Shown: positions 12,663 to 28,126 of the stretch, piece after piece
Layout of the letters: the number at the start of each line of letters is the position of its first letter
Position numbering within the stretch: the first letter of the stretch is position 1
From: Spirochaetaceae bacterium
GTDB lineage: Bacteria > Spirochaetota > Spirochaetia > DSM-2461
NCBI GenBank assembly: GCA_003246505.1
Contig: QKAI01000268.1
Span: 1 to 28,129 of the forward strand
Reading direction: 5' to 3'
DNA length: 28,129 nucleotides
The notes under the pieces: generated by a model
What the model saw: the letters and a program-made list of their open reading frames with translations, nothing else
What the model was told of the DNA's origin: nothing
Database searches by the model: none
Program-made: the position numbers and the translations under genes

Positions 12663-12699
12663 TTGTCCGTTTTGTATTAATGTTTTATTATCATACAAT
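12663..12699 (+). promoter_or_regulatory. Promoter TTGTCC-N17-TATTAT of the FadR-type gene, overlapped by operator ATTATCATACAAT (12687-12699)
   Basis: The operator is the reverse complement of ATTGTATGATAAT and overlaps the -10, consistent with autorepression. Confidence 0.7.
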
Positions 12700-12702
12700 G
12701 GG

Positions 12703-13422
12703 GTGGGTGACAGGGTGGCGAAAATCAGACAGAAGACAGTAGTCGAGCAGGTTATGGAGCAGATCAAGGGATTGATCGCTTCGGGCAAATACAAGCCGGG
12801 GGATAAACTGCCCACGGAACATGAACTGGCGGAAAAGTTCGGGATCGGCCGCTCTTCCATCCGGGAGGCTATAAAAATTTTCAATTACCTGGGCGTCCTC
12901 AAATCCAAGGCCGCCAAGGGAACCTTTCTTTCCGACCGGGCGAATATTTCCGCGGAAGCCCTCTCCTGGTCCATTCTCCTGGGAAAGGATGAACAGCAGG
13001 AGCTGATCGAAACCCGGGGGGCCATAGAGCTCTGGAGCATCATCACCCTTACCGGACTCTTTCAGAACAATCCGGTCAAGTGCACCCCCATACTGGATGA
13101 GCTGCAGGTACAGGTCGACCTGATGAAGCAGGGCATCGCCGACGGGGAGCTCGAGAAGCTGGTGGAAGCGGATTACGCCTTCCACAACATCATCGTGAAG
13201 AGCACGGAGAACAGCCTTTTCTACTCCATATACAAAACGCTCAAGTCGTTCATGTACGAAGAGATCATACAGTCCCAGAACGATTATACCGATCCTGGGA
13301 TGATCGTTTCCGAGCACCAGAGCATCATCAATACGATCCGGTCGGGGGATATCAACCAGTCCGTGAAGACATTCAGCTCCCACATAGAGAATATCGAGAA
13401 CCGCCTGAAGATCCGGGCCTAG
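12703..13422 (+). CDS. GntR-family, FadR-subfamily transcriptional regulator (wHTH + FCD)
   Basis: YKPGDKLPTEHELAEKFGIGRSSIREA...GKGTF-like AAKGTF; FCD motifs ADYAFHNII, NSLF and EH..II. The start could be GTG 12703 or GTG 12715. Confidence 0.92.
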   Translation: MGDRVAKIRQKTVVEQVMEQIKGLIASGKYKPGDKLPTEHELAEKFGIGRSSIREAIKIFNYLGVLKSKAAKGTFLSDRANISAEALSWSILLGKDEQQELIETRGAIELWSIITLTGLFQNNPVKCTPILDELQVQVDLMKQGIADGELEKLVEADYAFHNIIVKSTENSLFYSIYKTLKSFMYEEIIQSQNDYTDPGMIVSEHQSIINTIRSGDINQSVKTFSSHIENIENRLKIRA

Positions 13423-13940: not shown

Positions 13941-14834
13941 TCAGATGCCCGTATGCTTCTTAATATAGGCCCGGGCGTTTTTCGCGTAGACGAAGGGATT
14001 GGCCTTGGCCGGATCCTGCTCCGCTTCCACCACCATCCAGCCTTCGTAATTATTCTCATCCAGAATGGCGAAAAGGGAGGGGAAGTCCACACTGCCGTCT
14101 CCGGGGACGGTGAAGACGCCCGCCCTGACCGCATCCAGGAAGGAGGAGTCCTTCGCCTTTACCTCGGCGAAGACATCCTTTCTCATATCCTTGAGATGCA
14201 CATGGCCGACGCGGGAAATATACTTTTTGAGAGCCGCCACGGGATCCTCTTCGGAGAAGGAGAAATGGCCCGAATCGAACAGGAGGTAGACCTTGTCCGG
14301 ATCGGTGTCGTTAAGGAAGCGGTCCACCTCTTCCATGGTCTGGATGCCCGTGCCCATGTGGTGGTGGAAGGCGAGCTTCATCCCCTCACTTTTTGCTATG
14401 GCTCCCAGTTTGTTCAGCCCGTCGCAGACCGCTTTGAATTCATCCTTCGTAAATACGGCCTTACCGGAAAATACGGATTTCTTCAGGTCCCCCTGGCAGG
14501 AGCGGGTCTGCTCGGAGGGGCCGATGACGTCGGCGCCCATGGCCTTGAGGAACATGAGCTGTTCCCTGAAATCCTTCTCCACTTCCCCGTAGGGCTTGCT
14601 GGCCAGGAAGGAGCTGTACCACTGGTTGCAGATCTGAATGCCCCGGACCTCCAGCATCGGCTTCAGCACCGCCGGATCCTTGGGGTATTTGCTTCCCACC
14701 TCCGAACCGGTGTAGCCGGCCAGAGCCATCTCGCTGACGCACTGCTGGAAGGAGTTCTCCTTCCCCAGGTCGGGCATGTCGTCGTTGGTCCATCCTATGG
14801 GAGCCATCGCCAGTTTGACCTTATTCTTATCCAT
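13941..14834 (-). CDS. iolE: Myo-inosose-2 dehydratase
   Basis: APIGWTNDDMPDLG; FHHHMGT; LLFDSGH; HVHLKD; FTVPGDG; WMVVEAEQDP. Confidence 0.95.
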   Translation of the reverse strand: MDKNKVKLAMAPIGWTNDDMPDLGKENSFQQCVSEMALAGYTGSEVGSKYPKDPAVLKPMLEVRGIQICNQWYSSFLASKPYGEVEKDFREQLMFLKAMGADVIGPSEQTRSCQGDLKKSVFSGKAVFTKDEFKAVCDGLNKLGAIAKSEGMKLAFHHHMGTGIQTMEEVDRFLNDTDPDKVYLLFDSGHFSFSEEDPVAALKKYISRVGHVHLKDMRKDVFAEVKAKDSSFLDAVRAGVFTVPGDGSVDFPSLFAILDENNYEGWMVVEAEQDPAKANPFVYAKNARAYIKKHTGI

Positions 14835-14899: not shown

Positions 14900-16834
14900 T
14901 CAGTACTGCCGGGCCCTCTTGAGCTCTTCCTTCTGCTCCGCCGTCTTCTGGACAATGGTTTCGCTCTTCGCCACTTCCGCCTGACCGCAGCGCCAGAACC
15001 CCTTGTACCCGTCGGTCATGGTCTTGGGGAGAACCTTCACGTCTATGACCGTGGAGACGGTCTGCCTGGCCGCATCGGCCAGGGCCGCGCGGAGCTCCTC
15101 TTCGGTCTTGGCGGTGTAGGTCTTGCAGCCGTAGCCCTCGCCGATCTTGGCGAAGTCCACGTAGATCAGGTCCCCGTCCAGTTTGCCCGTTTTGCTGTTC
15201 CTATGGCGGAATTCGGTCCCGAAGGTGCCCTGTCCCCGGTCCATCTGCAGGTTGTTGATGCATCCGAACTCGGCGTTGTCGAAGACGACAAGGTTGATCT
15301 TCTTCCCCTCCTGGATGGAGGTGGCCAGTTCGGAATGGAGCATCATGAAGGATCCGTCCCCAAGATAGGTATACACCTCCCTGTCCGGTTCGGCCAGCTT
15401 GGCCCCCAAGGCGGCGCTGACTTCGTAACCCATGCAGGAGTAGCCGTATTCCATGTGGTAGGAGCGGAGGCTCTTCGCCCGGAATACCCTCTGTAGGTCC
15501 CCGGGGAGGGAACCGGAGGCGCCCACCACGATGGCGTTCTTATCCACAACCTCATCCAGAATTCCCAGAATCCGGGTCTGTGTCAGTTTCGTCCCCAGGG
15601 CTTTGCTGTACTCTTCCAGGGCCGATGTCAGGCCGTCCCGGATTTCGGGCACGAAGCCGGGGCCGGTGTATTCCAGGGAGAAGAGACGGTTAAGCTCCCT
15701 GTCCCATTCCTCCCTGGCCGCTTTGATCTCCGTGGTGTAGGCGGACTTGTAGCCCTCCTTCTTCAGGGTCTCCCGAATGGCGGCAAGGGCCGTCTTCGCA
15801 TCGCAGGTGACCCGCACCGCATCCATCTTGTAGGAGTCGAAGGAGGCCACATTGATGTTGATGAAATCCACGTTCGGGTTCTGGTAAAGCCACTTGGAGG
15901 CGGTGGTGAAGTCGGTGTAGCGGGTCCCTACCCCTATGACCAGGTCGGTCTCCTGTCCCAGGGTATTGGCGGCGAGACAGCCCGTGGTGCCCACGCCCCC
16001 CAGGTTCAGGGGATGGGAGTAGAGGGTGGCGCTCTTGCCCGCCTGGGTTTCGGCGTAGGGGATGTTGAACTCCTCGCAGAATTTGAGCATCTCCTCCGCC
16101 GCTTCGGAGTAGCGCACGCCCCCTCCGCAGATGAGCATGGGCTTTTTCTTGGATTTGATCATCCTTACCGCTTCCCGGACCATGGCGTCGGTGGGGGCGG
16201 TCCTTTCCAGGCGGTGAACCCGCTTCTGGAAGAAATATTCCGGATAGTCGTAGGCCTCGCCCTGCACGTCCTGGGGAAGGCAGACCGCCACGGCCCCCGT
16301 ATTGGCCGGATCGGTGAGGGTCCTCATGGCGCCGATCATGGCGGACATGAGCTGCTCCGGCCGGTTGATCCGGTCCCAGAATTTGCAGACCGGCCGGAAG
16401 GCGTCGTTGGTGGTGAGGGTCAGGTCGTGGAACTGCTCCATCTGCTGCAGAACCGGGTCGGGCTGGCGGGTGGCGTAGGTGTCGCCGGGCAGAAGAAGCA
16501 CGGGGATGCGGTTGGCCGTGGCCGTGGCCGCCGCGGTGACCATGTTGGCCGCGCCGGGGCCGACCGAGGAGGTGCAGGCGTAGATCTGCCTTCTGTGATT
16601 CTGCTTGGCGAATCCCATGGCCGCGGCGGCCATGCCCTGCTCGTTCCGTCCCTGGTGGACGATAAGATCGCCCGGATCCTCTTCCAGGGCCTGTCCCAGG
16701 CCCACCACGTTCCCGTGGCCGAAGATGGTGAAGATACCCTTGACGAATTTGTGCTCTTCCCCGTCGAATTCCAGATACTGCTGGTTCAGAAATTTCACCA
16801 GCGCCTGGGCTACGGTCATTCTTATGGTTTTCAT
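14900..16834 (-). CDS. iolD: 3D-(3,5/4)-trihydroxycyclohexane-1,2-dione acylhydrolase (ThDP-dependent)
   Basis: [10 protein letters not shown]; IFGHGNVVG; RNEQGMA; [11 protein letters not shown]; PDPVLQQ; [11 protein letters not shown]; ThDP motif GDGSFMM...N. Confidence 0.96.
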
Positions 16835-17646
16835 TATTTAACTTCCTTTCCGTGTTTTAATTCGGGCCAGATGACAACATCCGGCTCCTTCAGCCATTCA
16901 TGCTCTTTGACGAAATACCTGGTGGTGGGGAGCCACCGGTCGTTCTCCAGGTGGGGGATCATCCAGATGTAGTACATGGCGTATCCCGCCCCGGCCACCT
17001 GGGAGTGGGTTCGGTCCGGCACGATGAGGCAGGTATCCCCGTTCTTGACGAAATGGGGATCCTCATCGATCAGGGAGACGCCGAAGCCGCAGTCGGGAAA
17101 GTGGCGGTAGTGGTAGATCTCCGGCTGGGGATGATGGTGGGGCGGGTAGCTGGACCATTTCCCCGGGTGGTTGATCACCTCACCCAGAACCATGTTGGAT
17201 TCGGGAGCGATCACCCCGTCGAAGACGGTCCTGACCGTTCTCTTCGCCGTATCGTTGAGGATCCCCCCGCCGAAAATATCGGAGCGGATATCCTCCTGCC
17301 GGTAAAACCGGGGAGCGAACTCCCGGGGATTCTTCTTTTTTTCCACCGCGATTTCCGAGTCCTCCGCCGCAATGATGGTCACGGGAATATTCCGGGGGAC
17401 ATGGAGGACCACGGGGTTTTCCTCAAAGCAGGACCGGCGGACCGCCTCTTCCGTCTTCCCGTCCCATTTGAACTGAACCCGGCCGCCCATGAGGAGCCAG
17501 GCCCTCTCCTTGCCCTCCTGGCAGAGCCAGGTCTCGCCCTTCTTCAGCCGGAGAATTCCGAAATCCAGGAGCATTTCCGAATGGATGCCCTCCTCTTCGG
17601 TGATTACCGTATATCCGGTTTCCCATATCTGATTCTTTATAATCAC
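16834..17646 (-). CDS. iolB: 5-deoxy-glucuronate isomerase (KduI/IolB family)
   Basis: GEV...[16 protein letters not shown]; YAMYYIW; GGAGG RBS with GTG start; TAATG overlap with iolD. Confidence 0.88.
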
Positions 17647-17672: not shown

Positions 17673-17701
17673 ATTATATTGTAGTATTGTCTGATAATCA
17701 A
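17673..17701 (-). promoter_or_regulatory. Promoter TTGATT-N17-TATAAT of iolB-iolD-iolE, with operator ATTGTCTGATAAT (17686-17698) in the spacer/-35
   Basis: Consensus -10 at 17678-17673, -35 at 17701-17696; the operator matches the copies at 12687, 23541, 28058 and 28114. Confidence 0.8.
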
Positions 17702-17739: not shown

Positions 17740-18762
17740 TCAGGTGGACTCCCGGGGGGACAGGTGGGGGGCGATGCTGATCCGGGTCCTGGGCAGCTCC
17801 TCCCCGTTCCTTTTCTTCTGGATCTGATGGATCAGGCGCTGGCAGGAGAGGTGGGCCAGCTCATCCCGGGGCTGGTGAACCGAGGTCAGCCCGGGGTTGC
17901 TGTAACGGGCCAGCTCGCTGTCGTCGTATCCCGCCACGGCGATGTCCCCGGGAATGGCGACCCCCCTGTCCTCCAGGGCCCGCATGGCCCCCAGGGCCAT
18001 GAGATCGTTGCAGCCGAAGAGGGAGTCATACCGGCCGATGCCGTCCCCCAGGCCGGACAGGGCCTCCTTGGCCGATTCGAAGGTGGAGTCGCTGTAGAGC
18101 CGTTCCACCCTGACCCCCGCATCGTCCATCACTTCGCAGAAGCCCTTCTCCCTCAGGCGGAATTCAAGGTGCTCCTGGGTCTTCGCCAGCAGGAGGGGAT
18201 TCCTCCGCCCCTTCTGCAGGAAATGGGAGGCCACCTGCCTTCCCCCCTCCCTGTGGTCGGTGAAGATCACCTCCTGGTTTTTCGTGGCCTCGTCCGGGGG
18301 GTAGTGGAGGAAGACGGAGGGGACCCCATGGAGATTGAGGTACTCGATGCTCTCCTTCTTCAGATGCTCGATGAGAATGAGAAACCCGTCCACCTTGTTG
18401 CGGGATACGAGGCGGATGATGTTGTTGCCCCGGTCTTCCTGATAGGTCTGGTGGGTGATGATGAGGTCCAGATCGGCCTCTTCCAGGGTCTTGCGCAGGC
18501 TGTTGAGGAGCATGCCGTGGTAGACGTTGACGCTGACCATATGGTAGTTCTCCGGCAGGACGATGGCCACCGTACCCACCTGGCTGGTGATCATGCTCCG
18601 GGCGCCCGCATTGAATTCAAAACCCAGGTCACCGGCAATGCGGTTGATTCTCTCCCTCGTCTTGTAAGCCACCAGGGGACTGTTGTTCAGACTCCTTGAT
18701 ACGGTGGCGAAACTGACTCCGGCGATTTCCGCAATGTCCTTAATGGTGACCTGGCTGCCCAT
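17740..18762 (-). CDS. LacI-family repressor, last gene of the importer-iolG operon
   Basis: VTIKDIAEIAGVSFATVSRSLN; hinge region FNAGARSM; IAVAGYDDS...LTSVHQP. Confidence 0.93.
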   Translation of the reverse strand: MGSQVTIKDIAEIAGVSFATVSRSLNNSPLVAYKTRERINRIAGDLGFEFNAGARSMITSQVGTVAIVLPENYHMVSVNVYHGMLLNSLRKTLEEADLDLIITHQTYQEDRGNNIIRLVSRNKVDGFLILIEHLKKESIEYLNLHGVPSVFLHYPPDEATKNQEVIFTDHREGGRQVASHFLQKGRRNPLLLAKTQEHLEFRLREKGFCEVMDDAGVRVERLYSDSTFESAKEALSGLGDGIGRYDSLFGCNDLMALGAMRALEDRGVAIPGDIAVAGYDDSELARYSNPGLTSVHQPRDELAHLSCQRLIHQIQKKRNGEELPRTRISIAPHLSPREST

Positions 18763-18771
18763 CTCTCTCTG

Positions 18772-19785
18772 TCAAAACCTTAACTGTTTGTTTAATTCGA
18801 AGGATTCCTTGCACTTGTAGGCGATCTCCGAAACCCGGGTTCCGTCGTAGACCGTGACCCCGGGCTGCCGTCCTTCCAGGATACAATACACAAATTCCTG
18901 AATCTCGTTAATATAGGAGGAACCGAATCTCTCCAGAAAGTTCTCGCTGCACTCCCGGCGGACGCCCCCGTTGTCCAGGATCTCCACCAGATTCTTCTGG
19001 GGGACCGAGGCGATGCGCAGGATGCCCTTCGTCCCGATGATCTCCGTCTCCACGTTGTATCCGTGGGGGGCGGTCCTCCCCGCGAAGAGGAAGACCATGG
19101 CGTCGTTTCCGAACTGCATGAGGCAGGAGACGTTGTCCCCGTCCTTGTACTGTCCGAATTCGGGATGGGCGTAGCATCCGCCCAGGGCGGTGACGGAGAC
19201 GGGCTCCGAGTTCAGGAACCAGCGGGCCAGATCGATGTCGTGGACCGCCATGTCCAGGAACTGCCCCCCCGAATGGCCGGCGAAGGCGATGGCCCCGTCT
19301 ATGAACTTCTCCGGGTCCTGGCTGTAGGAACGGAAGAGAACGGGCTTCCCGATCTCCCCGGCCATCACCTTTTTATGGGCGTACATGTAGGATTCGTCGA
19401 ACCGGCGCATGAACCCCAGCATGAAGACCCTGTCCCCGTGGGCTTCCACCGCCTTCTCCGCCTCCTTGCACTCCTCCACGGTCACCCCCAGGGGCTTCTC
19501 GGAAAAGACGTGCTTTCCCGCGGCCAGGGCGGCGGCGATCTGCTTCGTGTGCAGGCCGGAGGGGGAGGCGAGGCAGACCGCGTCCAGCTCCTCCAGGGCG
19601 ATCATCTCTTCGAAGCTGGAGAACCGGTGCTTCACCCCCAGCCTGTCCGCGGTTCTGTTGAGCAGATCCCCGTTCAGGTCGCAGAGGGCGGTCAGCTCGG
19701 CATGCATGATCTTGGTGGCGATATTCTCCGCATGGGCCAGGCCCAGCCGGCCCAGTCCCACCGATCCGATCCTGATCGTTCTCAT
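18772..19785 (-). CDS. iolG: Inositol 2-dehydrogenase (Gfo/Idh/MocA family)
   Basis: GLGRLG Rossmann motif; GKHVFSEKP; GFMRRFD; DMAVHDID. True start MRTIRIG at 19785; the ORF-track extension to 20427 is an off-frame reading of the permease gene. Isomer specificity (myo/scyllo/chiro) cannot be read from sequence. Confidence 0.8.
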   Translation of the reverse strand: MRTIRIGSVGLGRLGLAHAENIATKIMHAELTALCDLNGDLLNRTADRLGVKHRFSSFEEMIALEELDAVCLASPSGLHTKQIAAALAAGKHVFSEKPLGVTVEECKEAEKAVEAHGDRVFMLGFMRRFDESYMYAHKKVMAGEIGKPVLFRSYSQDPEKFIDGAIAFAGHSGGQFLDMAVHDIDLARWFLNSEPVSVTALGGCYAHPEFGQYKDGDNVSCLMQFGNDAMVFLFAGRTAPHGYNVETEIIGTKGILRIASVPQKNLVEILDNGGVRRECSENFLERFGSSYINEIQEFVYCILEGRQPGVTVYDGTRVSEIAYKCKESFELNKQLRF

Positions 19786-19790
19786 GGCGA

Positions 19791-20810
19791 TTAACCCTTC
19801 TTGGCGTTCTTGCGCATATCGATGATAACGGCTACCACGATGATCACACCTTCGGTGACCTGCTGCCAGTAGGCGTCGACTCCCAGAAGGGTCAGGCCGT
19901 TTCTCATGACCGAGAGAACCAGGGCCCCCACGAAGGCGCCCCAGATGGTTCCGATTCCCCCGGAATGGCTGGTACCGCCGATGGTGGTGGCGGCGATGGC
20001 GGTCAGCTCGTAACCGGTGGCGGCGCCGGGATGGACCGATCCTACCCGTCCGGCGAAAACGATGGCCGCCAGACCGGCGAGGAGCCCCGAGTAGGCGTAG
20101 ATGGCGATGAGGTTCCGGCCCACGTTGACCCCGGACACCTCCGCCGCCTTGATGTTGCCCCCGATGGCGTAGACGCTCTTGCCGAAGCGGGTCATGTCCA
20201 GGAGGACGTAGCTGACGCCGATCATGAGAAAGTAGATCAGAACGGGGATGGGGAGCCAGCCGAAGAGCTTGCCCCCCAGGACGGTCAGGGAGTCGGTGAG
20301 GGTGCTCACGGGCTTGCCGTCCGAGTAGATCAGGGCCATGCCCCGGGCCACGGTCATCATGCCCAGGGTGGCGATGAAGGCGGGGATGTTGGTTTTGGCT
20401 ATCAGGGCTCCTGAGATACCCCCGCACAGGGCGCCCACGGCCAGGGCGGCCAGGATGGGGACGATGACCGGCATGACGGGCAGGTTGGGAAAGAATTTGC
20501 CCGTGGCGTCGGCGGTCTGGGCCAGGGACGCGGCGATGACGCCGGAGAGGGCCAGAACGGAGCCGACGGAGAGGTCGATTCCCTTGGAAATGATAACGAA
20601 GGTGAGTCCCAGGGCCATGATTCCGAAAATGGAGGTCTGGGTCAGGACGTTAAAAAGGTTGGAGCGGCTCAAAAAGGCCGGCTCCAGAATGCTGATGCCT
20701 ATGATCATGATGAACAGAACGAAGACGATACCGTACTTCTGCAGGATCTGCTGGGTCTTCTGGCTCCGCTCTTTTTTGCCGGGCTGGGCTTTTTCCGCAA
20801 TGGTTGACAT
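19791..20810 (-). CDS. CUT2 ABC transporter permease (RbsC-like), probably for inositol
   Basis: GIDLSVGS; IPAFIATLGMM; RFGKSVYAIGGN..AA.VSG; YELTAIAA..IGGTS..GG.G. Confidence 0.92.
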   Translation of the reverse strand: MSTIAEKAQPGKKERSQKTQQILQKYGIVFVLFIMIIGISILEPAFLSRSNLFNVLTQTSIFGIMALGLTFVIISKGIDLSVGSVLALSGVIAASLAQTADATGKFFPNLPVMPVIVPILAALAVGALCGGISGALIAKTNIPAFIATLGMMTVARGMALIYSDGKPVSTLTDSLTVLGGKLFGWLPIPVLIYFLMIGVSYVLLDMTRFGKSVYAIGGNIKAAEVSGVNVGRNLIAIYAYSGLLAGLAAIVFAGRVGSVHPGAATGYELTAIAATTIGGTSHSGGIGTIWGAFVGALVLSVMRNGLTLLGVDAYWQQVTEGVIIVVAVIIDMRKNAKKG

Positions 20811-20814
20811 TGTT

Positions 20815-22329
20815 TTACTCCTCTCCTACAGCTTTACCCGTGGCGTAGGACATTAATTGTTCTTGGGTAAGATCGGGCGTATTGTCCACGACGGCCGTGA
20901 CACGGCCCTCGTGCATGACCATTATCCGGTCACTCATGCCCATGACTTCCGGCAGTTCCGAGGAAATCATGACGATCGATTTCCCCTCCCCGGCCAGACG
21001 GGTGATCAGCCTGTGAATCTCCGACTTCGCCCCCACGTCGATGCCCCTCGTCGGCTCATCGAGAAAGAGAATGTCCGGATTGGTCATAAGCCACCGGGCG
21101 ACCAGAACCTTCTGCTGGTTTCCTCCGGAGAGGTTCTGCACCTTCTGCATCAGGCTGGGGGTCTTCACCTGAATCTTCTTGACGTAATCGTCGCACTCGC
21201 TCTTAAGCGATTTGTAACGGATCAGGCCCACCCTGTTCAGGTATTTGGGGATATTGGTGATAGCCATGTTCAACCGCACCGAGAGCATGGGGAAGATTCC
21301 CGACATGCGCCGGTCCTCGGTGAGCAGAGCCATATGCCTGGCGATGGCGTCCCGGGGGGAGTTGATGGTCACCTCCTCCCCGTCGATGAGAATCTGGCCG
21401 GAAACCTTGGACCGGATGCCGAAGATCGTCTCTATGACCTCCGTCCTACCCGAACCGATAAGGCCGGCCACTCCCAGGATTTCGCCCCTTCTCACGTTAA
21501 AGGAAACGTCCCTGAAGAGCCGCTGGTGGGTCAGGTTGCGGACTTCCAGTTTCACTTCCCCTATCTCGCAGGGGACCTTGGGGAACATCTCGTCCACGTT
21601 GCGGCCCACCATCATGTTGATGAGCCTGTCCACGATGAGCTTGTCCGTGTCCTCCACGCCGATATAGGTCCCGTCCCGGTAGACGGTGATCCTGTCGGTA
21701 ATCTCATAAACCTCATCCAGCTTATGGGAGATGTATATGATGCTCTTGCCCTGCGCCTTGAGCTTGCGCATGATGGTGAAGAGCTGCTTGACTTCCTTAT
21801 CTGTCAGTGCCGATGTGGGCTCGTCCATGATGATCAGTTTGGAATCGTAGGAGATGGCCTTGGCGATCTCGATCATCTGCATCTTGGCTACGGTCAGCTG
21901 AGCCATCTCTGTCCGGGGATCCTCATCCAGATCGATCTCCTTCAGGACTTCGATGCTCATATCATACATTTTTTTATGGTCCACGAGACCGAACTTGTTC
22001 AAAGGCTCTCTTCCGAGCCAGATATTTTCCATGATAGGTCTGTGAAGTATGGGGCTCAATTCCTGATGTATCATGGAAATGCCCATATGAAGAGCCTGGG
22101 ACGTATCGTAATTCTCCCGAACCTCGCCATCGTACATTATGGTTCCCGATGTGGGACTGTGTACGCCGGCCAGACAGTTCATAAGAGTCGATTTGCCCGC
22201 TCCGTTTTCTCCCATAAGCGCATGGATCTCTCCCTGTTTCACCTTAAGTTCAACACCTTTGAGAGCCTTGACACCGGGGAAGTTCTTTACAATATCCTGC
22301 ATCTGCAGGAGATAGTTTTCCTCAGCCAT
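20815..22329 (-). CDS. CUT2 ABC transporter ATP-binding protein with two NBDs (RbsA/MglA-like)
   Basis: GENGAGKST; IIMDEPT; LSGGNQQK; LFLDEPTRGIDVGAK. Start MAEENYLL at 22329 behind GGAGA; the extension to 22389 crosses hairpins. Confidence 0.94.
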   Translation of the reverse strand: MAEENYLLQMQDIVKNFPGVKALKGVELKVKQGEIHALMGENGAGKSTLMNCLAGVHSPTSGTIMYDGEVRENYDTSQALHMGISMIHQELSPILHRPIMENIWLGREPLNKFGLVDHKKMYDMSIEVLKEIDLDEDPRTEMAQLTVAKMQMIEIAKAISYDSKLIIMDEPTSALTDKEVKQLFTIMRKLKAQGKSIIYISHKLDEVYEITDRITVYRDGTYIGVEDTDKLIVDRLINMMVGRNVDEMFPKVPCEIGEVKLEVRNLTHQRLFRDVSFNVRRGEILGVAGLIGSGRTEVIETIFGIRSKVSGQILIDGEEVTINSPRDAIARHMALLTEDRRMSGIFPMLSVRLNMAITNIPKYLNRVGLIRYKSLKSECDDYVKKIQVKTPSLMQKVQNLSGGNQQKVLVARWLMTNPDILFLDEPTRGIDVGAKSEIHRLITRLAGEGKSIVMISSELPEVMGMSDRIMVMHEGRVTAVVDNTPDLTQEQLMSYATGKAVGEE

Positions 22330-22342
22330 GTTTTCTCCGATA

Positions 22343-22430
22343 ACCGGAGCGGGAGAATTCCCGCTCCGGTGGGTAACGCGGATTCCCATCTATCCTATGG
22401 TTCCCCGGAGGGAACCCCTATGGGGAATCC
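22343..22430 (-). other. Two stem-loops between the SBP and ATPase genes
   Basis: Perfect 12-bp stem ACCGGAGCGGGA/TCCCGCTCCGGT (22343-22370). Nested hairpin 22380-22430 with outer GGATTCCC/GGGAATCC and inner GGTTCCC/GGGAACC arms, giving a C(UCCG)G loop on the mRNA strand. Confidence 0.7.
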
Positions 22431-22438
22431 TTTGATTT

Positions 22439-23389
22439 CTACTGGTAATCGGCCAGATTTTCCGGGGTAATGAGAACGAAGGGGATCCATACGAGGGAAA
22501 CGACCTGCTCGCCCTTGAGAACCTTGTGGATCAGCTCTGCGGAACCCTTGCCCTGACCTACGGCGTCCTGAAGGACCGTAGCCGCCAGAGAGCCGTTTCC
22601 TACGGCGACCTTAGCATCGGGGATGGCGTCAACGCCCATGACGGGGATGTCGGTCCGGCCGGCGGCCTTGAGGGCTTCCACGGCACCCAGGGCCATTTCG
22701 TCGTTATTGGCGCAGATACCCTTAAGGTCGGAGCCGTATGCGGTGAGCCAGTTCTCCGTAATGGTCATGCCCTGGTCTCTCTGCCAGTTGCCGGTTTCCT
22801 TGGCAAGGATCTTGATGCCGGGGAACTTGGCCTTGGCGGTAACTTCGTTACCCTCGGTTCTCTTCAGGGCGCCTTCGTTGTCGAGCTTGCCCATGAGGAT
22901 GGCCACGCCGCCCTTACCGTCAAGAAGCTTGCCCATGTACTCCATCTGCTGGGTACCGGCAATGATCTCCTGGGAACCGACGTAATAGACGTTGGCGGGG
23001 AGTTCCTTCTCCGCATAGGGGTTTCTGTTGACGAAACAGAGGGGAACGTTGGATTCGGCGGCAGCCTTAACAATGGGACCCATGGCGCTCGTGTCAACGG
23101 GAACCACGATAAGGGCATCAATTTTCTGGGCGAGAAGGGTGTTGACCAGATCCTGCTGGCGGATAACGTCCTCCTGCGCGTCCTGAAGAACCAGTTCTAC
23201 ATTGGCGACGCCGGCAAAATACTCCTTGGCCGCATCCATAACGTAGGTCTGAAAGGTGTCGTTAAAGTTGTTACATACGTAACCAACTTTGAAACTGTCC
23301 TTGGCCCCTCCCTTATCCGCCGATCCGTTGGCAAAAGCCACGGTAACGGCCAGAAGGGCCAGCAGTGTTACGAACAATACCTTTTTCAT
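22439..23389 (-). CDS. CUT2 sugar-binding protein (RbsB-like), probably inositol-binding
   Basis: GGAGGT RBS, then MKKVLFVTLLALLAVTVAFANG; DAQED..RQ; IDALIVVPVD; YVGS; NNDEMALGA; GVDA; ATVLQD. Confidence 0.9.
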   Translation of the reverse strand: MKKVLFVTLLALLAVTVAFANGSADKGGAKDSFKVGYVCNNFNDTFQTYVMDAAKEYFAGVANVELVLQDAQEDVIRQQDLVNTLLAQKIDALIVVPVDTSAMGPIVKAAAESNVPLCFVNRNPYAEKELPANVYYVGSQEIIAGTQQMEYMGKLLDGKGGVAILMGKLDNEGALKRTEGNEVTAKAKFPGIKILAKETGNWQRDQGMTITENWLTAYGSDLKGICANNDEMALGAVEALKAAGRTDIPVMGVDAIPDAKVAVGNGSLAATVLQDAVGQGKGSAELIHKVLKGEQVVSLVWIPFVLITPENLADYQ

Positions 23390-23419
23390 AAAATACCTCC
23401 ATAGATTTCGCTTGCATAA

Positions 23420-23435
23420 TTGCAAACGTTTACAA
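23420..23435. promoter_or_regulatory. LacI-type operator TTGCAAACGTTTACAA (proximal)
   Basis: 16-bp near-perfect palindrome with a central CG, at the predicted transcription start. Confidence 0.8.
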
Positions 23436-23540: not shown

Positions 23541-23553
23541 ATTGTCTGATAAA
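23541..23553. promoter_or_regulatory. FadR-type operator ATTGTCTGATAAA
   Basis: The 12-bp core is identical to the iolB and transaldolase copies; it is adjacent to a possible second promoter (CTGACT-N18-TATAAT, 23540-23511). Confidence 0.7.
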
Positions 23554-23959: not shown

Positions 23960-25555
23960 TCATAGGGGCATGTTCCCGTGTTTCTTGGAGGGCCTGTCCT
24001 CCCGCTTGTCCGCGATGATCTCCAGGGACCGGATCAGCTCCTTCCTGGCCGATTCGGGGGAGATCACGTCGTCCACGATTCCCAGGGAGGCGGAGGAGAA
24101 GGGGTTCATGAATTTCCTCTGGTACTCGTGCATCTTGATTTCCTTGATCAGGTCGTGATCCTTGGCGGACTGGATCTCATTCCTGAAGATGATGTTGGCC
24201 GCCCCGGAGGCGCCCATGACGGCGATCTCCGCGATGGGCAGGGTCAGGACCCGGTCGTAGCCCAGGGCCCGGGAGGCCATGCCGATGTAGGCGCCCCCGT
24301 AGGCCTTTCTGAGGACCAGGGCGATCTTGGGCACCGTGGCCTCCGCAATGGCGTAGAGCAGCTTGGCCCCGTGGCGTATGATGCCCCCGTACTCCTGCTC
24401 CGTCCCGGGCATGTAGCCGGGCACGTCCACCAGGGAGATCACCGGGATGGAGAAGGCGTCGCAGAAGCGGACGAACCGGGCCGCCTTGTCCGAGGAGTCC
24501 CGGTCCAGGGCCCCGGCGAAGACCATGGGCTGGTTCCCGATGATCCCCACGGAACGGCCGGCCAAGCGGGCGAAGCCCACCACCATGCTCCGGGCGAAGT
24601 CCCTGTGGACCTCCAGGAAACTCTCCCCGTCGAAGAGAAGGGCGATGATCTCCCTCACGTCGTAGGCCCGGGTGGACTCCCCGGGGATGATCCTGAGGAT
24701 CTCCCCGGTCTCCCTGTTCGGGTCGTCGGTGCACTCCAGCCGGGGAGGGGCCTCCCGGTTGGAGGAGGGCAGGTAGGAGAGCAGTCTCTTCACGAGCCGG
24801 AAGCACTCCTCCTCGCTGGCGCAGTGGAAGTGGACGTTGCCGCTTTTGCTGGCATGGGCCAGGGCCCCGCCCAGGTCCTCGTGGCTAACCTCTTCCCCGG
24901 TCACCGCCTTGATGACCTCCGGCCCGGTGATGTACATATGGCTGGTTTTGTCTATCATGAAGACGAAGTCGGTCAGGGCCGGGGAGTAGGCCGCGCCCCC
25001 CGCGCAGGGCCCCATGATCAGGCTGATCTGGGGGATGACCCCCGAGGCCAGGATGTTCTCCCGGAAAATGCTGCCGTAGCCCTCCAGGGACATGACCCCC
25101 TCCTGGATCCGGGCCCCCCCGGAATCGTTGATCTGGATGAAGGGTTTCCCCGTCTTGAGGGCCAGGCGCTGGGTGGCGGCGATCTTGGAGGCGTGCTGCT
25201 CCCCCAGGGAGCCCCCCAGGACGGTGAAGTCCTGGGAGGAGAGCCAGATCTGCCTCCCCTCGAGGAGGGCGCTGCCCGTGATGACCCCGTCCCCGGATAT
25301 CTTCTTGCTGTCCATGCCGAAGTCGTCGATGCGGCTCAGCTCGTAGGGATGGTTCTCCACGAAGCTGCCCTCGTCGGTGAGGAGCCGGATCCTTTCCCGG
25401 GCCGTATGCTTGCCCTTGGCCTTCTGCCTGGCCTGGCGGTCCTCCCCGCCCCCGGCCAGCATGGCCTTGCGCATCGTCTCAAGAAGCTTCAGGCTCTCCC
25501 TGTGGCTGTAGGGCAGTTCGGGGGACGGGTCAGTTCCCTTTTCTGACGTGCTCAT
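23960..25555 (-). CDS. Acyl-CoA carboxyltransferase subunit (PccB / (methyl)malonyl-CoA decarboxylase alpha / transcarboxylase 12S family)
   Basis: GKHTARERI; GDGVITG; QDFTVLGGSLGE; DSGGARIQEG; GPCAGGAAYSPALTDF; DVPGYMPG; RKAYGGAY; C-terminal KKHGNMPL. GAGGAG RBS lies inside the upstream gene (26-nt overlap). Confidence 0.92.
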   Translation of the reverse strand: MSTSEKGTDPSPELPYSHRESLKLLETMRKAMLAGGGEDRQARQKAKGKHTARERIRLLTDEGSFVENHPYELSRIDDFGMDSKKISGDGVITGSALLEGRQIWLSSQDFTVLGGSLGEQHASKIAATQRLALKTGKPFIQINDSGGARIQEGVMSLEGYGSIFRENILASGVIPQISLIMGPCAGGAAYSPALTDFVFMIDKTSHMYITGPEVIKAVTGEEVSHEDLGGALAHASKSGNVHFHCASEEECFRLVKRLLSYLPSSNREAPPRLECTDDPNRETGEILRIIPGESTRAYDVREIIALLFDGESFLEVHRDFARSMVVGFARLAGRSVGIIGNQPMVFAGALDRDSSDKAARFVRFCDAFSIPVISLVDVPGYMPGTEQEYGGIIRHGAKLLYAIAEATVPKIALVLRKAYGGAYIGMASRALGYDRVLTLPIAEIAVMGASGAANIIFRNEIQSAKDHDLIKEIKMHEYQRKFMNPFSSASLGIVDDVISPESARKELIRSLEIIADKREDRPSKKHGNMPL

Positions 25556-26912
25556 CGAATAACTCCTCGTCCGAGGGCTGTCTGTTCGCGATGGGAGAGG
25601 ACACCCAGGTCGTGTTGATCAGGTGCTTCCAGGTGATGTTCTCGCTGGAAATGTTCCCTCCCCAGGTCCCGCAGCCCAGGGTCAGGGTGGTGGGCATGCC
25701 GTTGGTCCAGGAACCGCTGTTGGCCAGGCAGTGGGGCTGGTTCACCATGACCCGGGACACCTTCACCTGTTCCGCCAGCTGGAGGATCCGCTCCCTCCTG
25801 GTGGTGTGGATGCCGCAGGAGTGGCCCGCCCCGGAATAGGCGGTGATTCTGTTGACCATCCGCACGGCCTCGTTGAAATCGCTCCATTTGTACAGGGCCA
25901 TGACCACGGAGAGCTTCTCCCCGCTGAAGAGGTAGCCCTCTCCCGCGCCGGTCTCCTCCACGAAGAAGAAGCTTTTCCCTTCGGGGAGAGCGATGCCGGC
26001 GATGCCCGCGATCTTCGGGGCCGGCTGGGCCACCACGTCCCGGTTGAGGGTATGCCCGTCGGGCCACAGGGCCTTCTCCAGCTTACCCTTCTCCTCGGCG
26101 CTGCAGAGGTAGCCCCCTTCCGCCTCCAGGGCCTTCACCAGATCCCCGTAGATGGTGTCCTGGGCCAGGCAGGAGTTCTCCGCGGAGCAGCTGGTGGCCA
26201 TGTCGAAGGTCTTGGACCGCTTGATTTTGTCGGCCACCACCTTCATGTCCTGGGTATCGTCCACGATGGTCACCGCGTTGCCCGCGCCCACCCCGTAGGC
26301 GGGGGTGCCGCTGGAGTAGGCCGTCTTCACAAGGCCGGCGCCGCCCGTGGCCAGGATCAGGTCGCACTTGGCCATGATCTCCTGGGAATTCTCCATGGTG
26401 ACCTGGTCCACGTGGATGATCAGGTCCTCCGGGTAGCCCAGCTTCTTCAGGACCCCTCTCATCTTGTTGACCACCATCTCGTTCGTTTTTACGGAGCGGG
26501 GATGGGGGGCCAGGATAATGGCGTTCCTGCCCTTGAGGGCGCTCATGGACTTGAGGACCGGGGTCGCCTCGTTGTTGGTGGTGGGGACCATGGCCCCGAT
26601 GACGCCCACCGGCTTGGCGATCTTGATCAGCCCCAGGGCGGGATCCTCTTCGATGATGCCGGCGGACTTCTTGCCCTTCATGTCGAACCATCCGGCCCTG
26701 ACCTTGTTCATCATCTTGCCGTGCTTGCTCTCGAAGCAGCCCATGCGGGACTCCTCCACGGCCATGGTCGCCAGTTCGGTGACGAAGGGCTCCTGAACGC
26801 ACACCCAGGCGATGGTCTGGCAGATCTCGTCCACCCTCTCCTGTGAGAGGAACTCTATCTCTTTCTGGGCCTTCCGGGCCCGGTCTATCAATCCGTTTAC
26901 GTAATCCGACAT
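25530..26912 (-). CDS. CoA-acylating aldehyde dehydrogenase (AdhE-N/EutE/SauS-like)
   Basis: KPVGVIG..VPTTN; KGRNAII.APHP; LATGG.GLVK.AYSSG.PAYGVGAGN; catalytic Cys in ATSCSAEN; GEKLS; GHSCGIH; TLGCGTWGGN. Confidence 0.92.
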   Translation of the reverse strand: MSDYVNGLIDRARKAQKEIEFLSQERVDEICQTIAWVCVQEPFVTELATMAVEESRMGCFESKHGKMMNKVRAGWFDMKGKKSAGIIEEDPALGLIKIAKPVGVIGAMVPTTNNEATPVLKSMSALKGRNAIILAPHPRSVKTNEMVVNKMRGVLKKLGYPEDLIIHVDQVTMENSQEIMAKCDLILATGGAGLVKTAYSSGTPAYGVGAGNAVTIVDDTQDMKVVADKIKRSKTFDMATSCSAENSCLAQDTIYGDLVKALEAEGGYLCSAEEKGKLEKALWPDGHTLNRDVVAQPAPKIAGIAGIALPEGKSFFFVEETGAGEGYLFSGEKLSVVMALYKWSDFNEAVRMVNRITAYSGAGHSCGIHTTRRERILQLAEQVKVSRVMVNQPHCLANSGSWTNGMPTTLTLGCGTWGGNISSENITWKHLINTTWVSSPIANRQPSDEELFDEHVRKGN

Positions 26913-26933: not shown

Positions 26934-28013
26934 TTACTTCTTATCCGGGTTGGGCAGCATGAAATCTTTGATGATCCCCAGAAGCTCATGGTAGCCGTCG
27001 ATGAATCCCCTGAGGGTCCGGGCGGTGGCGCCGTAAAAATCGAATTCCTCGGGCTTCATCGTGTAGGCCCCGTAGGCCCTGTTGAAATCGGGGAACTTAT
27101 CCTGCAGCTCCTTGAGAACGGCCGGATCGACGGGCCTGTCTATGGTCACTTCCACGGGAACGTCGCTGCCGTTGAACTTCTTCTGCCAGTCGCAGGGTAT
27201 GGTCTGAACGATATCGTCCCCTATGATCTGGGACCAGTGGAGATGGTTTCTGTAGGCGGCGGAGAGAAGCCGGGTCCGGAAACCCTTTTCCTTATATATT
27301 TTGTAGGCGTTCTTGAAGGCGGCCACTCCGGCCCAGTCCAGGACGCCGGGGGTCGTCACGATGCCCTGCTTGCCCGCCACGACCTTGAGCCAGTCATCCA
27401 GACGTCCGACCATGATCGTGCAGACCGGGGTCATTTTTGAAACGTCCTTTCCTTCCGCCTCCCTTCTCTTCAGGCCCCGTTCCACCGCTTCCGCCACGGC
27501 CACAGCCTGGGGTACGGTGAAACAGACGGTGGCGTTGATGTTGACGCCCCGGTAGGTGGCTTCTTCGAAGGCTTTGATTCCCGCGGCGGTGGTGGGCATT
27601 TTGACCATCATGTTAGGGGCCAGGGTACTGAACTTGACCGCCTGCTCGGCCATGGCGCCGGCGTTGCGGTAGAGCTGGGCATTGGTCTGGATGGATATAC
27701 GGCCCTTGAGTCCCTTCTCCCTGTCAAAGACGGGTTTGAGGATTTCCGCTCCCTTGACGGCCATCTCTTCGATGAGCTTCCAGGCGACTTCCACTTCCCC
27801 CGCTTCGGGCATCTCCGCGATAATTTCCTTGATTCTGCCTTCCCAGAGGGGCATCTCCTTCTTAAGTACGTTGAGAACGATTACCGGATTGGTGGTGGCT
27901 CCCGTGGCGCCGTGGCCTATGGAATATTCCAGTTCCTCCACGGAACAGGAATCATTCCACACCTCCATATTGCATATGGAAACGGATTTCCTAATAGGAC
28001 TCATATCACCCAT
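26934..28013 (-). CDS. Transaldolase-family protein with a non-canonical active-site signature
   Basis: WNDS; GATTNP; Schiff-base Lys in MVKMPTT; INATVCF; MVGRLDDW; AAYRN; AAGGAG RBS. Confidence 0.88.
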   Translation of the reverse strand: MGDMSPIRKSVSICNMEVWNDSCSVEELEYSIGHGATGATTNPVIVLNVLKKEMPLWEGRIKEIIAEMPEAGEVEVAWKLIEEMAVKGAEILKPVFDREKGLKGRISIQTNAQLYRNAGAMAEQAVKFSTLAPNMMVKMPTTAAGIKAFEEATYRGVNINATVCFTVPQAVAVAEAVERGLKRREAEGKDVSKMTPVCTIMVGRLDDWLKVVAGKQGIVTTPGVLDWAGVAAFKNAYKIYKEKGFRTRLLSAAYRNHLHWSQIIGDDIVQTIPCDWQKKFNGSDVPVEVTIDRPVDPAVLKELQDKFPDFNRAYGAYTMKPEEFDFYGATARTLRGFIDGYHELLGIIKDFMLPNPDKK

Positions 28014-28057: not shown

Positions 28058-28070
28058 ATTGTATGATAAT
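28058..28070. promoter_or_regulatory. FadR-type operator ATTGTATGATAAT upstream of the transaldolase operon
   Basis: Exact reverse complement of the site at the FadR gene's own promoter. Confidence 0.75.
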
Positions 28071-28113: not shown

Positions 28114-28126
28114 ATTATCAGACAAT
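28114..28126. promoter_or_regulatory. FadR-type operator ATTATCAGACAAT, second copy
   Basis: Exact reverse complement of the iolB site ATTGTCTGATAAT. Confidence 0.75.

Follow-up and report, generated by a model that had tools for sequence, protein, structure and literature searches.

The window analysed here is a complete contig (QKAI01000268.1, C327; 28,129 nucleotides, nt) from the 81%-complete genome of a marine spirochaete whose nearest named relatives are Oceanispirochaeta. It encodes a CoA-acylating aldehyde dehydrogenase (ALDH) that is probably a malonyl-CoA-forming malonate-semialdehyde dehydrogenase and that, together with a carboxyltransferase (CT), would replace IolA in anaerobic inositol catabolism. 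Malonate semialdehyde is very probably the substrate, and malonyl-CoA is the likely product released by the enzyme. An initial annotation of the contig had named malonate semialdehyde as a candidate substrate, and this is now supported, at the level of sequence comparison, by inositol (iol) operons in which a homologue occupies the place of iolA, by gene clusters of pyrimidine and beta-alanine degradation, and by the lack of a methylmalonate-semialdehyde dehydrogenase (MMSDH) in the genomes that carry the gene.

Position among the acylating aldehyde dehydrogenases

The open reading frame is intact, stands alone and begins with ATG:

25530-26912, minus strand: aldehyde dehydrogenase of the CoA-acylating type (460 aa), proposed to form malonyl-CoA as a malonate semialdehyde:CoA dehydrogenase
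Residues of this protein: C242 and H364 in catalysis; K70 and S243 as ligands of the anion; E115, S399 and W402 as markers of the clade

Both segments cited in the initial annotation, ATSCSAEN (which includes the catalytic C242) and GSWTNGMPTTLTLGCGTWGGN, are found in this frame. Its top NCBIfam match is the sulfoacetaldehyde dehydrogenase SauS (NF047625, 515.9 bits with a cut-off of 600); the models of AdhE (401 bits, cut-off 951), EutE (328, cut-off 620) and PduP-type enzymes (195, cut-off 403) score below their cut-offs as well, and the IolA/MMSDH profile TIGR01722 gives no match. Foldseek returned acylating ALDHs throughout its top matches, and the nearest solved structure is the succinyl-CoA reductase SucD of Clostridium kluyveri (324 bits, ~40% identity). 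Since the domain arrangement of the AlphaFold model (pLDDT 88) conflicts with all solved relatives (TM ~0.49, rmsd ~21 Å) and the loop 399-402 is of low confidence, no pocket geometry was taken from it.

Trees were calculated with FastTree on 156 sequences and with a quick IQ-TREE run under a mixture model on 42 rows; supports are SH-like only, and context-defined proxies stand for SauS and SqwD in trees that hold no characterised SauS, SqwD or SucD sequence. ALDH lies far from AdhE, EutE and a PduP-like protein in the larger tree, with the same topology in the smaller one, and thus does not group with the acetaldehyde and propionaldehyde enzymes, an outcome that had been named beforehand as speaking against the assignment; as anticipated, it groups with the SauS/SqwD-type enzymes and keeps the anion-binding K70 and S243. 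Three groups are seen: context-defined SauS proteins (sauRSTU or TTT-sauS-sauCD loci), which form their own clade and score 681-809 bits, above the NF047625 cut-off; a clade of 17 SqwD-like rows (with transketolase, RpiB and an ADP-forming ligase in the SqwD layout), which score below it; and a clade of 82 rows that holds the query (support 99 in FastTree, 83-96 at the corresponding nodes in IQ-TREE). A stand-alone homologue from Vibrio viridaestus (L180:8001-9380, 65% identical) is nested among spirochaete sequences and may have been acquired by transfer.

The residues K70, T112, C242, S243 and H364 carry the same numbers in C. kluyveri SucD, and C242, H364 and S365 align to its C242, H364 and T365. 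K70 and S243 are the ligands of the distal carboxylate in SucD; PduP has Leu and Val at these positions (PMC10249356). Both are kept in all SauS-like, all SqwD-like and nearly all query-clade proteins, and of six outgroup rows five lack K70 and all lack S243, the AdhE/EutE/PduP-like proteins having mostly Ala at both positions. An anionic aldehyde is therefore very likely the substrate. Position 399 separates the anion-binding enzymes by context, being Ser in 46/46 CT-linked proteins and Gly in 22/22 sulfonate-context proteins; position 402 is Trp or Tyr in the former and Phe in all 22 of the latter, although these counts stem from few independent lineages. E115, S399 and W402 occur together in 120/120 nearest homologues.

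The "SauS-like" description in the initial annotation thus holds in part. SauS (Cupriavidus necator, Bilophila wadsworthia; NF047625; PMC10413351) is the nearest named family and shares with the query a stand-alone acylating ALDH of ~460 aa, the ATSCSxEN motif, K70/S243 and an anionic aldehyde with two-carbon spacing. The LGCGxWGGN segment is also present in AdhE and SucD, however, and the SGSW segment cited as SauS-like departs from the GGxF of SauS and, given the split at 399/402 by context, sets the protein apart from that family. The identity to SauS is ~39-43%, S399/W402/E115 stand against G/F/A in SauS, and the partner is a carboxyltransferase instead of SauT or SauCD. Judged by score, clade, partner and loop alike, the protein is not a member of SauS. 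SqwD of the sulfo-transketolase variant pathway (PMC12890257), likewise an acylating ALDH of anaerobes and spirochaetes, shows 44-48% identity and forms the sister group to the query clade within the same radiation, but the SqwD-like proteins, identified here by context and not by a characterised sequence, have G399/F402 and never occur with CT. SucD (PDB 8CEI-K; PMC10249356) acts on a C4 substrate, has G and F where the query has S399 and W402, and differs in context, as no succinate or 4-hydroxybutyrate genes accompany ALDH. AdhE, EutE and PduP share the fold and the catalytic Cys and His at 30-38% identity, but fall outside the query clade, have GxICASEQ or similar motifs and Ala or hydrophobic residues at positions 70 and 243, and occur in microcompartment contexts or fused to an alcohol dehydrogenase. 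Neither is seen for ALDH: no microcompartment or alcohol dehydrogenase gene is among the annotated genes of the window, as had been stated initially, and no microcompartment (BMC) domain was found in the source genome, which is 81% complete.

Gene context of the homologues

Homologues with 61-64% identity are flanked by iolC and the gene of an iolJ-type class II aldolase in otherwise complete iol operons that lack iolA (Crassaminicella profunda, Clostridiaceae 35-E11, a Bacillota metagenome-assembled genome and L154), and iolC of these clostridial operons is above cut-off (422 bits). As malonate semialdehyde is a known product of IolC acting with IolJ (PMC8355322), this argument for the substrate is independent of any function of the transaldolase-fold protein described below. 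Many further homologues (55-63% identity) lie beside genes for an omega-aminotransferase, a nitrilase-family amidase, dihydropyrimidinase and PreA/PreT, at loci that also hold CT, a biotin-carrier-like protein and the beta subunit of a Na+ pump; the reductive pyrimidine route leads to beta-alanine and malonate semialdehyde (PMC7332683).

Among the loci of the 82-row clade, CT was found in 44, an aminotransferase in 25, the transaldolase-fold protein in 15 (operonic with ALDH), iol genes in 14, Na+-pump genes in 13 and pyd genes in 12, and 64 of the 82 have a source gene for the aldehyde or CT; a SauCD-type sulfoacetate-CoA ligase was found in none. MMSDH above cut-off is present in 0/44 carrier genomes and iolD in 23/44. 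With iolC above cut-off in 9/44, the enzyme seems to be used both with and without the kinase route.

The family also shows variation around these contexts. C. profunda has five paralogues of the query clade (P0072, P0097, P0098, P0103 and P0104) with near-identical active-site motifs, the iol operon being the context known for one of them. One genome (G178) holds, as a second copy, a recent paralogue (85-86% identical) with CT (L013:5414-13001) that follows a TetR-like gene and three genes for FAD/Fe-S dehydrogenases, a third kind of context beside the iol operons and the pyrimidine clusters; the iol operator described below is absent there, and the ALDH-CT module appears redeployed to another aldehyde source. 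In L017, L018 and L076, an ALDH with 65-69% identity and CT occur with a neighbour resembling phosphoenolpyruvate-utilising enzymes and a different transaldolase-fold protein (28-31% identical). A second type of inositol-linked cluster (L067, L068, L069 and L070, of G277, G124, G037 and G001) combines an acylating ALDH of 46-49% identity and a distinct, AGCSCDN-like active-site motif with a CoA-transferase, an HMG-CoA-lyase-like protein and a split transketolase beside iol-like genes; here a transketolase route may lead to a C4 aldehyde and an acyl-CoA cleaved by the lyase.

The TAL-ALDH-CT operon and a proposed inositol regulon

In the window, ALDH is the middle gene of a unit of three, between a transaldolase-fold protein (TAL) and an MmdA/PccB-type CT, and the genes of inositol catabolism follow 535 bp beyond CT, starting with the sugar ABC importer and continuing with iolG, a LacI-family gene, iolB, iolD and iolE:

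26934-28013, minus strand: TAL (359 aa), encoded by the operon's first gene; PF00923, below every TAL/FSA cut-off
23960-25555, minus strand: CT (MmdA/PccB/12S type), 531 aa; PF01039 599.6 bits, TIGR01117 727 bits (below the cut-off of 998.8), relatives in the PDB
28058-28070 and 28114-28126, no strand assigned: the 13-bp operator ATTGT(C/A)TGATAA(T/A), present twice upstream of TAL-ALDH-CT, with promoter-like sites alongside
23541-23553, plus strand: operator copy upstream of the sugar ABC importer/iolG unit
17686-17698, plus strand: operator copy upstream of iolB-iolD-iolE
12687-12699, minus strand: operator copy upstream of the GntR/FCD regulator gene
22439-23425, minus strand: sugar ABC substrate-binding protein, probable inositol importer
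19791-22389, minus strand: ABC ATPase (20815-22389) and permease (19791-20810)
18772-19785, minus strand: iolG, inositol 2-dehydrogenase; TIGR04380 359.5 bits (cut-off 355)
17740-18762, minus strand: LacI-family regulator
16834-17646, minus strand: iolB-like (KduI/IolB family); PF04962, TIGR04378 93 bits, below cut-off
14900-16834, minus strand: iolD, trihydroxycyclohexanedione hydrolase; TIGR04377 939 bits (cut-off 715)
13941-14834, minus strand: iolE, inosose dehydratase; TIGR04379 409.8 bits (cut-off 290)
12703-13422, plus strand: GntR/FCD (FadR-type) regulator, accompanying the cluster in relatives

The initial annotation had the stop codon of ALDH overlapping the start of CT. The overlap exists, but spans 26 nt: the ATG of CT (25555) and its ribosome site GAGGAG lie inside ALDH, and the TGA of ALDH (25532-25530) lies inside CT. 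It is identical in the relatives L007 and L009.

The 13-bp operator occurs five times, with 0.09 copies expected. It is kept upstream of TAL in eight related loci, including L010, whose trio lies apart from the iol genes. In three other spirochaetes, whose loci have the layout iolBDEG-ALDH, it is found 26-326 nt upstream of ALDH. Because the motif is common to the trio, the importer, iolBDE and the loci of relatives, we place ALDH in the inositol regulon, where it would be regulated together with these genes, and the GntR/FCD protein likely reads the operator.

Neither iolC above cut-off, nor MMSDH/iolA, nor a class II aldolase was found in the 81%-complete genome, in which TIGR01722 has a single weak match, on contig C279. 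We propose, from gene context, that TAL provides malonate semialdehyde, a role otherwise filled by IolC and IolJ, and that CT is a malonyl-CoA decarboxylating subunit. A sulfo-transaldolase reading of TAL was rejected, as the match to BmSF-TAL is weak (E 3e-7) and sulfo partners were not found. One locus (L024, G283) has iolC and a class II aldolase gene alongside TAL-ALDH-CT, and the transaldolase and kinase routes can thus coexist, which bears on the proposed replacement of IolC/IolJ by TAL. At the iolBDEG-ALDH loci of two iolD-positive genomes (G209 and G223; L033 and L049) there is no TAL, iolC was not found in either genome, and the gene for the cleavage step is unaccounted for.

Proposed mechanism and alternative explanations

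In the route that we propose, IolG, IolE, IolD and IolB would convert myo-inositol to 5-dehydro-2-deoxygluconate, and cleavage between C3 and C4, here probably by the co-transcribed TAL and elsewhere by IolC and IolJ, would give malonate semialdehyde. Cys242 would attack the aldehyde, its carboxylate bound by Lys70 and Ser243, to form a thiohemiacetal; the hydride would then pass to NAD(P)+ and the malonyl group to CoA, yielding malonyl-CoA with no decarboxylation by ALDH, steps that are modelled on the ping-pong chemistry of the SucD-type family (PMC10249356). The translationally coupled CT would pass the carboxyl group to a biotin carrier, leaving acetyl-CoA and carboxybiotin. ALDH and CT together would hence replace IolA, as malonyl-CoA is made by the one and turned into acetyl-CoA by the other. 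That malonyl-CoA is released and decarboxylated separately is suggested by the tight pairing of the two genes, CT being directly downstream of ALDH in 34/149 loci and absent from every sulfonate-context locus.

The fate of the carboxyl group and its coupling to Na+ in the source lineage is the least certain step. MmdA-type pumps such as the Veillonella enzyme accept malonyl-CoA. The Na+-pump beta subunit is encoded at the same locus in 13 loci of the clade, often with delta-like and biotin-carrier genes, and with carrier and pump subunits in one operon, as in many relatives, decarboxylation could drive Na+ export. G209, a genome whose iolBDEG-ALDH locus has no CT beside it, carries a separate CT-delta-biotin carrier-beta operon. 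CT is the only one of the MmdA-D-C-B components in the window, no biotin partner is encoded in the TAL-ALDH-CT operon, and accB and accC are present in the source genome. The carrier would act in trans in this lineage, most plausibly as the biotin domain of an oxaloacetate decarboxylase (OAD) Na+ pump; possible acceptors of the carboxyl group are this pump, pyruvate (through transcarboxylation) and AccB, and part of the malonyl-CoA may feed fatty acid synthesis. Na+ coupling of the decarboxylation in the source organism is plausible, but we lean slightly to the doubtful side.

Several observations weigh against the proposed route or limit what can be drawn from its evidence. K70 and S243 indicate an anionic substrate and not malonate semialdehyde specifically, as the sulfonate and succinate enzymes have both, and the context counts draw on related rather than independent genomes. 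CT is missing from the neighbourhood of some close homologues (those of the clostridial iol operons and of V. viridaestus, where a source gene is likewise missing). The source genome, 81% complete, yielded no Na+-pump beta subunit, and close kin encode oadG-oadA-oadB with the biotin domain on OadA and no free MmdC or carrier at that locus. The co-occurrence of the beta subunit is uninformative, as it is present in 44/44 carrier genomes but also in 42/60 non-carriers (9/9 within the family). No assay of any member of the query clade was found in the literature.

Acting on the same substrate, ALDH itself might decarboxylate the bound malonyl group to acetyl-CoA, in the manner of IolA/MMSDH (EC 1.2.1.18), with CT otherwise employed. 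This would fit the homologues that fill the iolA slot and the loci without an adjacent CT, and MMSDH performs such chemistry on an enzyme-bound thioester (PMC12041015). We nevertheless consider it unlikely, as ALDH belongs to the SucD/SauS acylating family and not to that of MMSDH, CT follows it so often and in no sulfonate context, and one genome with an ALDH lacking a neighbouring CT has the separate CT-carrier-pump operon. A different anionic aldehyde, derived through TAL from another sugar acid or inositol derivative and with CT acting on the resulting acyl-CoA, is also rather improbable. The transaldolase reaction of TAL is unproven, the wider family spans contexts as different as coenzyme M clusters (L157) and the CoA-transferase/HMG-CoA-lyase/transketolase clusters, and in L010 the trio lies apart from the iol genes; yet that trio retains the iol operator in a genome with iolD, and malonate semialdehyde is the product that the homologues beside canonical iolC and iolJ and those in pyrimidine clusters have in common.

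Sulfonate metabolism, with ALDH as a sulfoacetaldehyde dehydrogenase of the SauS or SqwD type, would be suggested by the best family match, by the label "sulfoacetaldehyde dehydrogenase" that many homologues bear at JGI, by the SqwD-type pathways known in spirochaetes (PMC12890257) and by SqwD-like proteins that also score below the SauS cut-off. The separation from both clades and the complete split at S399 versus G399/F402 make this reading highly improbable; moreover, SauT, SauCD or SqwKL partners are lacking in the clade loci, PF00549 was not found in the source genome (81% complete), and a carboxyltransferase would have no role on sulfoacetyl-CoA. Very little also speaks for operation in the reductive direction, from acetyl-CoA via malonyl-CoA to malonate semialdehyde, for beta-alanine or 3-hydroxypropionate formation or for electron disposal. 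The family is reversible, SauS and SucD working as reductases (PMC10413351, PMC10249356), and the aminotransferase-ALDH-CT loci can be read that way, but ALDH is placed in a catabolic inositol regulon that yields the aldehyde, its operon has no aminotransferase or reductase gene, and the partners elsewhere are Na+-pump decarboxylase subunits and not biotin carboxylase.

If ALDH is indeed a malonyl-CoA-forming enzyme, the reaction itself would be known, but from unrelated proteins, and family and route appear undescribed. A literature search, which covered neither subscription journals nor the primary PydD/PydE/MSDH papers, found no description of an acylating malonate-semialdehyde enzyme or route in this family, and the available sections of the 2025 ALDH superfamily review give malonate-semialdehyde chemistry for ALDH6 and malonyl-CoA reductases only (PMC12041015). 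IolA/MmsA (TIGR01722, ALDH6, EC 1.2.1.18/27) shares the proposed substrate, the place in inositol and pyrimidine catabolism and, after CT has acted, the net product; it belongs, however, to another ALDH family, decarboxylates on the enzyme and never releases malonyl-CoA (PMC12041015), and involves no biotin step. The malonyl-CoA reductases (EC 1.2.1.75; the Sulfurisphaera Asd/GapDH type and Chloroflexus MCR-C) catalyse the same chemical reaction with unrelated folds, their natural role being reductive CO2 fixation. In anaerobes, malonate semialdehyde has so far been described as being decarboxylated by IolA, reduced to 3-hydroxypropionate or, via CoA transfer, directed towards propionate (PMC8355322); the canonical enzymes are missing from some inositol fermenters (PMC13311982). 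The proposed route would add a fate via free malonyl-CoA, common to inositol and pyrimidine pathways and to spirochaetes and clostridia, in which decarboxylation is routed via a biotin enzyme rather than the one-step IolA and energy might be gained through a Na+ pump.

More tentatively, the widespread malonyl-CoA-forming family could be the anaerobes' replacement of IolA/MmsA in inositol and uracil/beta-alanine degradation, with a biotin CT turning an otherwise wasted decarboxylation into Na+ pumping, while the lone spirochaete CT would borrow the biotin domain and membrane subunits of OAD and the aldehyde would stem from a kinase-free transaldolase step. On the main reading, a large group of proteins now labelled sulfoacetaldehyde dehydrogenase would require re-annotation, for which the two-residue marker S399/W402 versus G/F, separating carboxylate from sulfonate enzymes, could be used. 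In the engineered, non-carboxylative pathway to malonyl-CoA (PMC12799670), the reaction is paired with a beta-alanine aminotransferase, as in many of the natural loci; the enzyme would be the counterpart of this pathway in nature and a candidate for malonyl-CoA supply. With C. profunda, a cultured host with a complete genome exists.

Outside the operon, the window holds a 2-thiouracil desulfurase family gene (PF04463; 13431-13871) between the GntR gene and iolE, and L010 has a gene of the same family close to its trio. Positions 1-2070 encode two Trp-rich repeat proteins in tandem, the complete one without a Pfam match. A stretch of lower GC content (~50%; 5099-8226) holds the gene of a LuxR-type regulator with a membrane anchor and, after it, that of a 486-aa protein matching MACPF weakly (21.3 bits, cut-off 21.5).

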